Source: Candidatus Bathyarchaeota archaeon
GTDB lineage: Archaea; Thermoproteota; Bathyarchaeia; 40CM-2-53-6; RBG-13-38-9
Direction of reading: 5' to 3'
DNA: 64,000 bases
NCBI GenBank assembly: GCA_963807605.1
Contig: CAWECG010000002.1
Span: 24,779-88,778, forward strand
Shown here: piece by piece, positions 25,408-35,389 of the stretch
Layout of the letters: each line of letters opens with the position of its first letter
Numbering within the stretch: position 1 is the stretch's first letter
The notes under the pieces: model-generated
The model's input: only the letters and a program-made list of their open reading frames with translations
What the model was told of the DNA's origin: nothing
Database searches by the model: none
Position numbers and translations under genes: made by a program

Positions 25408-26724
<1,317 letters not shown>

Positions 26725-28514: not shown

Positions 28515-28520
28515 TTTATT
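28515..28520 (+). promoter_or_regulatory. Putative TATA box of the tRNA-Tyr gene
   Basis: TTTATT about 25 nt upstream of 28545. Confidence 0.45.
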
Positions 28521-28557
28521 TGGATTCTTGTTTGAGTGACCTCTGGGTCCCGCGGAT

Positions 28558-28771
28558 CCCGCGGTAAGATGTAAATCAACATCCCGTAAGCTCAGCTTGG
28601 TAGAGCTTCCGATCACGCCAATAACGTGAGGAGACGCTGTAGAGTTGCACCTAGTGTGCGACCGTTCAGCCTATCAGGCTAACACAGATACCGGAGTGTC
28701 GCTGGAGAGCCCAAAGGACTCGGCGAATTCAAAATAGGCAGTTGCCTATGAAACTCCGGCCCGCGGGACCA
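28558..28771 (+). tRNA. tRNA-Tyr: tRNA-Tyr(GUA) with five introns: 28567-28589, 28612-28635, 28643-28689, 28706-28727, 28734-28754
   Basis: Removing five BHB-bounded segments gives a 77-nt cloverleaf CCCGCGG TA GCTC AGCTTGGTA GAGC T TCCGG CTGTAGA CCGGA GTGTC GCTGG TTCAAAT CCGGC CCGCGGG ACCA, with the archaeal Tyr identity elements C1-G72 and A73. Confidence 0.93.
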
Positions 28772-28933: not shown

Positions 28934-28975
28934 TGGCGGGCCCGGTGGTACTCGCATTCAATCAAGTGCGAGTAC
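28934..28975 (-). mobile_element. tRNA-Arg-like 3'-end fragment (att-like) fused to a hairpin
   Basis: Minus strand CCACCGGGCCCGCCA; adjacent inverted repeat GTACTCGCA/TGCGAGTAC. Confidence 0.45.
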
Positions 28976-29703
28976 TGAATTTGGCTTCTCGCGCGAAACC
29001 TTTTGCATTAACTAGTCGGAGCGGCCATATATAATAAGCGCATTTTTGAACAGTTTCAACCTGCTCATGCAAAGCAACCGAATCCAAACAACTCAAGCGC
29101 CCGTGGAAGTCTAATCTGCAAGGCGTTCCGTTGCATGCGTTGATGCCTATAAAAAGATAGAAACCGGTTTTCTAGATTAAGCCGTTTTGACTTGGTAGTT
29201 TCCTGAGCAATATCAGGTAGAGGCAGATGGCAGAAGGGGAATGGGGCCCGAGCATACTAGACAAACTAGAGGACGTGTTCGACTACGTCAAGAGACATCC
29301 GAGATACTAAAGCAACTAAATGGTGGGGGTCGTCTGATCAGATCTTCTAAACATTTCTTGACAACTATCTTGAAATTGGAATGCTTGGCGATCGTTACGC
29401 TACAACAATCATATCCCATAACACAATACAGCCATGCTTGGCTGGACACTATGGTGGCTCTACCGAATCATACTGTTATCAGTTACGTAATATGCACCAA
29501 TAGCACAAATGACACAAATCAGACCAATGACACAGGCAGCGCGCCGATTGCCTGTCTGTCCTTTTTGATACCGGTCACTATCATATCTAATCCGCTTGCT
29601 GGCATACACAATCACCTCCGTTATTGTATGACGCTATTTAATATACGCTATAAACCTAAGACTTATATATCTGTCATTCACTCTACTGATAATTTGAGAA
29701 ACA

Positions 29704-34360: not shown

Positions 34361-35389
34361 TTGCCTTTTTGCATGAATTGTGGCAAGGAACTGAGCCGCT
34401 TCTCAAATGTGCCCTACTGCTCTGATTGCGCCAAAGTGGATACGCCTCGTTGTTCAACCTGCAATTCTCCATTAGTCACGGTCAAAGTTTCCACTGGTTT
34501 AGACAAGTTCTCCAAGCTTAGAGGAATCGATGAGTACCTTACTGCGGAGATGTGCAAGACATGCATGAAGGTAACAGTGCGTCTGGACCTGATCTCTGAC
34601 GGTTTGATGTCTGTCTTTGTCGGTCGTGTGGTCCGAGTTGATCGTGAGCGCTATGGCAAGCGGATAGTTCAAATACCAACAAGTTATCCTGAGGAGGCCT
34701 CAGGAAAGATTCTGAGATTTTCTTTCTATCATCCGATCAGAAGAGGAGATAGAGTAGCGATTGCAGGACAGCCGTCAACCGATTGGATTGAACCAATATT
34801 AATCAGGAACCTGTCTGCAGGCTCAGAGAAGATAGGAGGATCACTCTACGCCCAAGTCTTGGTTGAAGACCGGAAGAACCTCAAGATTGCGAACCCACTA
34901 GTCATGAAAGCTCAGAAACAAATTGACGCAGCCTTGAAGTCATATGAAGAGCAATTAGCGAGAATTGTGACGCGTTCTTCCGAATCTAGGATGCTGAGCC
35001 CCTCGGAATTCGAAATGTTGGTGGCTGACCTCTTTGAGCGACTAAGCTTTCAGAACGTTATGATTACCGGCGGAGCGGGCGACAAGGGCGTAGACATAGA
35101 AGCATCCCGAGTCGAGGAGGGTAGCGGCAAGCTTTCCAGAATCATAGTTCAGTGCGCGCACCAAAGCATGATCAACCGAGTAATGCCCACGCAGGTTAGA
35201 GATTTCGCCCATACGATAGAAAGAGAAAAGAAAAATGATGTTTGTCGCGGGTACTTTGTGACAAGCTCTTACTTCTCTCCAGAGTGTTTTGACAAAGAGA
35301 ACTGTGGAGACGACATGGAGCTTATAGACCGTGACCAGCTGGAATTATTGTTGAAGAAAGCGGGACTGCCCTTTCCTGAACTACGATAA
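34361..35389 (+). CDS. Mrr-family restriction endonuclease with N-terminal Zn ribbons
   Basis: FEMLVADLF, GGAGDKGVDI, IVQC, VRDF, YFVTSSYFS, ELID. Confidence 0.82.
   Translation: MPFCMNCGKELSRFSNVPYCSDCAKVDTPRCSTCNSPLVTVKVSTGLDKFSKLRGIDEYLTAEMCKTCMKVTVRLDLISDGLMSVFVGRVVRVDRERYGKRIVQIPTSYPEEASGKILRFSFYHPIRRGDRVAIAGQPSTDWIEPILIRNLSAGSEKIGGSLYAQVLVEDRKNLKIANPLVMKAQKQIDAALKSYEEQLARIVTRSSESRMLSPSEFEMLVADLFERLSFQNVMITGGAGDKGVDIEASRVEEGSGKLSRIIVQCAHQSMINRVMPTQVRDFAHTIEREKKNDVCRGYFVTSSYFSPECFDKENCGDDMELIDRDQLELLLKKAGLPFPELR

Follow-up and report, generated by a model that had tools for sequence, protein, structure and literature searches.

A five-intron tRNA-Tyr gene of a Bathyarchaeia archaeon with a leader copy of its acceptor strand and a guide-like fold-back of its canonical intron

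On the forward strand of a 64,000-nucleotide (nt) stretch of Candidatus Bathyarchaeota DNA (assembly GCA_963807605.1, contig CAWECG010000002.1), which we call the window, positions 28558-28771 carry a tRNA-Tyr(GUA) gene with five introns of the bulge-helix-bulge (BHB) type; 137 of its 214 nt are intronic. Two further elements, a leader copy of the acceptor strand and a fold-back of the third intron, may assist maturation of its precursor. Exon 1 (28558-28566, tRNA nt 1-9) supplies the splice helix of intron 1 with its 5' strand (28561-28564). It is followed by intron 1 (28567-28589, 23 nt, site 9/10), exon 2 (28590-28611, nt 10-30), intron 2 (28612-28635, 24 nt, site 30/31) and exon 3 (28636-28642, nt 31-37), which carries the anticodon GUA and U35 (28640), the proposed pseudouridine target. 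The canonical intron 3 (28643-28689, 47 nt, site 37/38) consists of a variable hairpin and a conserved guide segment and precedes exon 4 (28690-28705, nt 38-53), intron 4 (28706-28727, 22 nt, site 53/54), the 6-nt exon 5 (28728-28733, nt 54-59), intron 5 (28734-28754, 21 nt, site 59/60) and exon 6 (28755-28771, nt 60-76) with its encoded CCA. This structure reproduces exactly the coordinates, lengths, sites and five 4-bp helices that a previous sequence-only reading had assigned.

When the introns were removed in silico, ARAGORN folded the resulting 77-mer (including CCA) into a tRNA-Tyr(GUA) cloverleaf with a C1-G72 pair and A73, and the intact 77-nt tRNA expected from the sequence-only reading was thus recovered. 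The same reading had anticipated that standard annotation would miss the gene, and indeed neither ARAGORN nor Rfam (RF00005) detected a tRNA in the unspliced locus. A custom BHB-aware parser returned this gene as its sole hit in the window and produced zero hits in 2.6 Mb of simulated fourth-order Markov sequence. The folding z-score of the locus was -5.1, and the spliced exons matched those of a single-intron orthologue at 74 of 77 nt. Among orthologous loci, the spliced junctions are uninterrupted at 9/10 (n = 90), 30/31 (n = 124), 53/54 (n = 21) and 59/60 (n = 10), and since the same junctions occur in nature without an intron, those of the four non-canonical introns can be considered naturally proven. 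An empty 37/38 allele was not found among the loci compared.

All five introns show a 4-bp central helix, 3-nt bulges cut after the second base and an outer h or h' helix. Introns 1, 2, 4 and 5 are HBh' motifs, and intron 5 reaches the full hBHBh' form once the T stem has formed; U54 is common to the motifs of introns 4 and 5. The helices and bulges described earlier were confirmed, but the uniform picture of a hairpin inside each motif did not hold for intron 3. This intron is hBH/BHL-like, its hairpin is set apart from the central helix, and the guide segment lies between the two. An alternative parse, which carried an equal parser penalty, divides intron 3 into two introns (36/37 and 37/38) flanking a one-base exon (A37). 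We consider such a six-intron gene very improbable, because in several orthologues (L021, L022, L023) the one-base exon would be a U and not a purine, the inner hairpin helix is not conserved, and the presumed helix is the same pairing with nt 31-34 that the guide strand forms. A manual check for introns nested within intron 3 did not reveal a valid helix. In five related genes (L107, L110-L112, L142), extra segments of 8-12 nt, some of them hairpin-like, separate intron 3's ACA box, described below, from its 3' splice site, and these are possible nested introns. Another relative (L114, G278:C42:35300-36950) carries a complete Tyr gene and, about 1 kb further on, a second Tyr 3' part from nt 31 with different introns, which is likely an integration scar or a split half.

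The host genome (2.65 Mb, 94% complete), in which most tRNA genes bear introns, was inspected for a second tRNA-Tyr gene, as the sequence-only reading had recommended, and none was found. The 'Tyr' call of ARAGORN on contig C3 turned out to be an intron-containing Leu-CAG gene. On the processing side, the genome encodes an EndA alpha subunit with the Tyr-His-Lys catalytic triad and the crenarchaeal loop (best match 2cv8, E-value 1e-38) as well as a second, divergent EndA subunit. The crenarchaeal loop lets EndA accept relaxed motifs (PMC3241643), and from its sequence the host EndA appears to be a two-subunit enzyme of the crenarchaeal type that would be fit for such motifs. That the locus might be a pseudogene or a chance fold, with another tRNA-Tyr serving the cell, is hardly credible to us. 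It would be compatible with a genome that is 94% complete and from which the parser also did not recover the Asp and His isotypes. However, no other Tyr gene was found, the parser gave no hits on null sequence, and the exons are kept while the intron loops diverge in 12 of 15 family members and beyond. We regard it as practically certain that the gene is a genuine spliced tRNA-Tyr gene. Judged from these sequence data, it is probably the functional tRNA-Tyr(GUA) gene of its Bathyarchaeia host, apparently present as a single copy, and the two-subunit EndA of the host would mature a precursor of about 226 nt.

The sequence-only reading had called five introns exceptional and the 9/10 site rare, and neither assessment stood. 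The count does exceed the maximum of three introns given for multi-intron archaeal tRNAs in the tRNAscan-SE 2.0 paper (PMC8450103), and four introns have been tabulated for an Atabeyarchaeia tRNA gene (PMC11291895). However, a preprint of October 2026 on Asgard archaea, in which Bathyarchaeia, leaders and guides are nowhere mentioned, reports 'up to five in a single gene' (bioRxiv 10.64898/2026.10.13.758758), and published five-intron examples were what the earlier reading had named as removing the novelty of the gene. Moreover, the tRNA-Trp(CCA) gene of the host genome (G000:C1:69922-70173, minus strand) also gave a five-intron parse with a weaker score (10/11, 28/29, 37/38, variable arm, 59/60) and carries a leader decoy of the kind described below. 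Its canonical intron (65 nt) contains C/D-box-like motifs. Close relatives yielded 13 distinct five-intron Tyr genes, and the wider search 34 such sequences, some of them near-identical; in five of these, a 22/23 intron replaces the one at 30/31, and two come from genomes labelled Thaumarchaeota. Six five-intron parses with an 8/9 site were excluded from the 34, since they probably represent four-intron genes with a long leader, and no six-intron gene was present among 83 parsed Tyr genes. The 9/10 site is common in this lineage, with 77 Tyr sequences and, in addition, Lys-CUU of the host genome. The intron count ties the published maximum, is no record, and extends it to Bathyarchaeia and deep Nitrososphaeria.

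Upstream of the gene, we identified a TATA-like box (28515-28522), which would place the transcription start at about 28545-28546, and a leader element (28546-28555) that consists of GGT and a copy of acceptor nt 1-7. This leader decoy can form 10 bp with the 3' strand of the acceptor plus A73-C74-C75 (28761-28770). It is presumably transcribed, as the TATA-like box starts about 31 nt before it. Where relatives lack the 9/10 intron, 33-34 nt separate the box from the tRNA 5' end; where they have it, the box stands at this distance from the decoy copy. We also considered the first copy as the true 5' end of the tRNA and rejected this candidate: nt 8 would then be A and not U, and the copy has drifted in relatives (positions 2, 6 and 7).

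Intron 1 builds its splice helix with nt 4-7, bases that otherwise belong to the acceptor stem. Folding with the native leader gave this helix a predicted probability of 0.92, which fell to 0.00 when the leader was omitted or replaced by GGT alone or by poly-A. Across the Tyr orthologues, the duplex of leader and acceptor ranged from -18.9 to -24.8 kcal/mol where the 9/10 intron is present (n = 17) and from -2.8 to -16.3 kcal/mol where it is absent (n = 25), and two genomes of one genus (L021 and L022) differ in both features. When Tyr genes with a 9/10 intron were selected without regard to the leader, the copy was present in 77 of 77 (duplex -16.2 to -24.8 kcal/mol). In the host genome, Tyr, Asn, Lys-CUU, Trp and Thr-CGU are the only genes parsed with introns at 8/9-10/11, and the same five tRNAs rank first to fifth among 39 by leader duplex (nominal chance 1.7e-6). 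Each of the five decoy leaders matches its own acceptor sequence. From these comparisons and from folding, it is quite probable that the leader copy frees nt 4-7 for intron-1 splicing and then yields to the true strand and RNase P. The copy would hold the acceptor 3' strand and leave nt 4-7 free to form the splice helix. After splicing of intron 1, the true 5' strand would take over and RNase P would remove the leader, and the hand-over may proceed by branch migration, aided by tertiary folding and RNase P cleavage.

Four points temper this assignment. A Gln-CUG gene (G000:C4:321502-321632, plus strand) has a decoy-like leader (-15.6 kcal/mol, sixth in rank) and no intron near the acceptor stem; as candidate readings, this leader might be a relic or part of a BHB-like fold at the leader/+1 boundary. 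In the folding models, the decoy remains stronger than the true acceptor strand even in the spliced RNA, and the hand-over is thus assumed. Folding energies leave out proteins and tertiary structure, and related genomes are non-independent samples. The Gln-CUG gene would also fit the idea that the copy is a neutral scar of a duplication or recombination event that imported the 5'-proximal intron, in which case it would have no splicing role and the gene would otherwise be an ordinary multi-intron tRNA gene. Its location at the tRNA start of relatives that lack this intron marks the first copy as a duplication product, and further 5'-end duplication is seen in some Nitrososphaerales genes. Nevertheless, we judge a mere scar to be improbable: the copy is kept in all 77 genes (Bathyarchaeia, Nitrososphaeria) despite a spacer variation of 0-5 nt, changes in it mostly preserve pairing, the five isotypes each match their own acceptor, and folding without the copy predicts no splice helix for intron 1. 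Six genes from Nitrososphaerales/Thaumarchaeota records (L280, L296, L299, L300, L314, L333) show the order decoy, nt 1-9, BHB intron, G and a new intron-free 5' end. Here, the 9/10 intron was apparently lost by 5'-end duplication, leaving a fossil intron in the leader.

The second element lies in intron 3. Its variable hairpin is followed by CAGC (28667-28670), which pairs with tRNA nt 31-34, by a 9-mer (28671-28679) antisense to D-loop nt 15-22 (28595-28603), by two bases and by an ACA box (28682-28684). The fold-back was predicted with a probability of about 0.96 and U35 was unpaired at 0.98; pairing ends at G34, U35-A36 stay free, and the ACA box is 15 nt from the base opposite G34. The motif was found in 100 of 301 Thermoproteota genomes, compared with 3 control hits, and its carriers include Nitrosopumilus, Cenarchaeum, Caldarchaeum and Brockarchaeota records. 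The D-loop pairing is backed by compensatory changes in 83 genes from 21 families: position 17 is C:G in 63, U:A in 17, U:G in 3 and C:A in none, and position 20 is U:A in 56, A:U in 11 (5 families) and U:G in 10. Among genes selected without regard to the ACA, the box was 13-15 nt away in 96 of 96, and 24 of 27 BLAST-selected orthologues have it at this spacing (the remaining three have AAA). One family (f22, three sequences) has a rewritten D loop together with an intron strand rewritten to match, and its ACA lies 14 nt away, astride the 3' splice junction. That this family had seemed to lack the motif was an artefact of the search pattern. In L418-L420, the stem strand is longer by one base, the spacer is shorter by one base and the 15 nt are kept.

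Folding suggests that this structure imposes an order on splicing. The intron-2 helix uses C25 and nt 27-28. Its predicted probability was 0.1-0.2, or 0.57 if the register is shifted by one base, as long as intron 3 was present and 0.0 once intron 3 was removed; because the helix is lost if intron 3 leaves first, intron 2 should be excised before intron 3. Intron 3 has a splice helix that cuts across the guide fold and requires the anticodon stem, and because of this conflict a late exit of intron 3 is expected. Maturation by EndA might then be an ordered series of refoldings in which intron 1 relies on the decoy fold. Intron 3 would first fold back on the D loop and nt 31-34, opening the D and anticodon stems so that intron 2 can be cut, and the same fold-back would block its own splice helix and postpone its removal. 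We consider it fairly likely, on the basis of these models, that the fold-back enables intron-2 cutting and delays the removal of intron 3. Late departure of an anticodon-arm intron is also described for Cyanidioschyzon (PMC3728597).

The same fold has the outline of an H/ACA pseudouridylation guide. Archaeal H/ACA guides place the ACA 14-16 nt from the target (PMC11077068), and here the distance of an ACA/ANA box from the target U is 15 nt (13-15 in orthologues). The 9-bp D-loop:intron helix, half of it exon, would represent the lower stem directly before the ACA; the 3' guide strand pairs up to the base before the target, and the target U and the next base are unpaired. Since the fold requires exon sequence, the excised intron alone cannot form it and a guide of this kind must act in cis; it is not a separate trans-acting RNA with a two-part pocket, but depends on the D loop of the same molecule. 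We also evaluated intron 3 as a C/D guide and rejected this reading, since it has no C box and no conserved D box. Cbf5, Gar1 and Nop10 are all encoded by the host genome. Its cbf5 gene (G000:C3, about 1143681-1143699, plus strand) contains a 19-nt BHB intron inside the catalytic Asp codon, removal of which gives a 336-amino-acid frame. An intron at the same cbf5 site is reported for Desulfurococcales and Sulfolobales (PMC2738675); here it is present in Bathyarchaeia. In the fold-back, with U35-A36 unpaired and the ACA 15 nt away, Cbf5-Nop10-Gar1 might convert U35 to pseudouridine in cis, without a kink-turn (K-turn). For such a role of intron 3 in directing pseudouridine at position 35 (Psi35) by an H/ACA-like fold, our models tip the balance slightly in favour.

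Several features speak against a guide function. An H/ACA upper stem bearing a K-turn for L7Ae is missing, only a 3-5 nt linker being present, and the variable hairpin lacks conserved tandem G-A pairs; because of the missing K-turn and upper stem we did not class the element as a classic H/ACA RNA. In 88 of the 96 genes chosen without regard to the ACA, the box shares bases with the splice-helix strand, which accounts for part of its conservation. The host encodes a short, bacterial-looking TruD (365 amino acids, G000:C3:265588-266690, plus strand), and most motif-bearing Bathyarchaeia encode aPus7, alongside which a guide might be redundant. The short TruD type is found in families f1 and f22, and a 460-amino-acid aPus7 without the Arg-His pair in many other families. 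In the 12 aPus7 proteins checked, the Arg-His pair of motif II was lacking and the basic residue of motif IIIa was retained (motifs as defined in PMC2651775). TruD/aPus7 was not found in f6, f9 and f14 and was present in only 4 of 44 f2 genomes, and the motif is kept in all four families. A simple correlation in which the guide replaces TruD was discarded, since aPus7-bearing families also keep the motif, and the TruD distribution neither proves nor excludes a cis guide.

If these objections are taken at full weight, the fold-back would be a switch for folding and splicing order only, the ACA a mere strand of the splice helix, and Psi35, if present, a product of TruD/aPus7. It would fit this explanation that the fold promotes the intron-2 helix and leaves no room for the splice helix of intron 3, that most Nitrososphaeria genes have an ACA overlapping the helix strand, that a K-turn is missing and that TruD is encoded in the host genome. 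We nevertheless find it rather unlikely. The design is retained in genes in which 37/38 is the sole intron and in families with little or no TruD, and pairing stops at G34, leaving U35-A36 free. In Bathyarchaeia, the ACA is often separate from the splice-helix strand; of 80 genes with the helix strand shifted downstream (a set partly selected for the ACA), 45 retain it at 14-15 nt, and so does f22, in which the ACA spans the splice junction.

Sequence comparison establishes the exact junctions of the five introns, the association of a leader copy with introns at 8/9-10/11, and the conserved intron-3 pairing with its ACA; the roles of both helpers we infer from comparison and folding. Taken jointly, the gene, the role of the leader decoy and a functional fold-back of intron 3 make up a likely account. 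More tentatively, and somewhat short of an even chance in our view, the precursor may supply its own aids, with the leader as a strand-exchange chaperone and intron 3 as a K-turn-less, H/ACA-like cis guide for Psi35 that also times splicing and is ancestral in much of Thermoproteota (Bathyarchaeia, Nitrosopumilus and relatives, Caldarchaeales, Brockarchaeota). A literature search that covered only a minority of subscription papers retrieved neither a description of a leader decoy nor a paper on a cis guide in a tRNA-Tyr intron.

Both elements, which were absent from the sequence-only reading, outweigh the intron count in importance. The decoy bears on how BHB introns can exist where the splice helix borrows a strand of a stable tRNA stem, and the guide on why the tRNA-Tyr intron is so widely retained. 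If true, an ancestral guide would give this intron a concrete reason to persist, and a half-exon, half-intron guide without a K-turn would broaden the substrates usable by Cbf5. Both helpers are open to direct tests in vitro, for which transcripts and existing enzymes would do, and cultured Nitrosopumilus offers a further test of the guide. The case further illustrates how an essential gene drops out of annotation.

As for the surroundings of the gene, an IS605 TnpB-like gene (25730-26707, plus strand) adjoins hisG, which shows 79-83% identity in Bathyarchaeia genomes, and an Mrr-type restriction endonuclease gene (34361-35389, plus strand) is located downstream. On the minus strand, a 15-nt segment (28934-28948) repeats a tRNA-Arg 3' end, has no gene attached and adjoins a hairpin of 13 bp (28946-28977), and this combination is a possible attachment-site relic. 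Two relatives carry an intact tRNA-Arg gene at the site of the fragment.

Compared with known systems, the leader decoy resembles the leaders of split tRNAs in Nanoarchaeum (PMC4033280) in that a flanking transcript pairs and enables BHB formation. There, however, the leader belongs to the BHB and joins two RNAs, whereas the present decoy lies outside the motif and would free a helix strand by strand exchange. With the multi-intron tRNAs of Asgard archaea, our gene shares several short BHB introns per gene, many of them non-canonical and missed by standard tools, but it originates from Bathyarchaeia. The multi-intron tRNAs of Thermoproteales are similar in their HBh'/hBH motifs, in the dependence of one motif on the removal of another and in an (alpha-beta)2 EndA with the crenarchaeal loop (PMC8450103, PMC4033280, PMC3241643); in contrast, no more than three introns per gene are reported for them, and we found no leader decoy described. 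The closest counterparts of the intron-3 fold are Sso1/sR115 of Sulfolobales and Aeropyrum. In Sulfolobales, the trans guide modifies U35 on the intron-containing pre-tRNA-Tyr (PMC2651775, PMC11077068), and the precursor as target, the unpaired U35-A36, the ACA at 14-16 nt and a strong 3' guide strand are common to both systems. Sso1/sR115 are separate trans RNAs with a K-turn and an upper stem, whereas in the present guide the 3' half is intronic, the D loop provides the lower stem and there is no K-turn. Finally, the intronic box C/D guide of archaeal pre-tRNA-Trp, which a 2014 review called 'a unique example' of an intron-borne guide (PMC4090602), likewise holds guide information for its own tRNA, but it directs C/D methylation in trans, whereas the tRNA-Tyr intron would provide an H/ACA-like pseudouridylation fold in cis.
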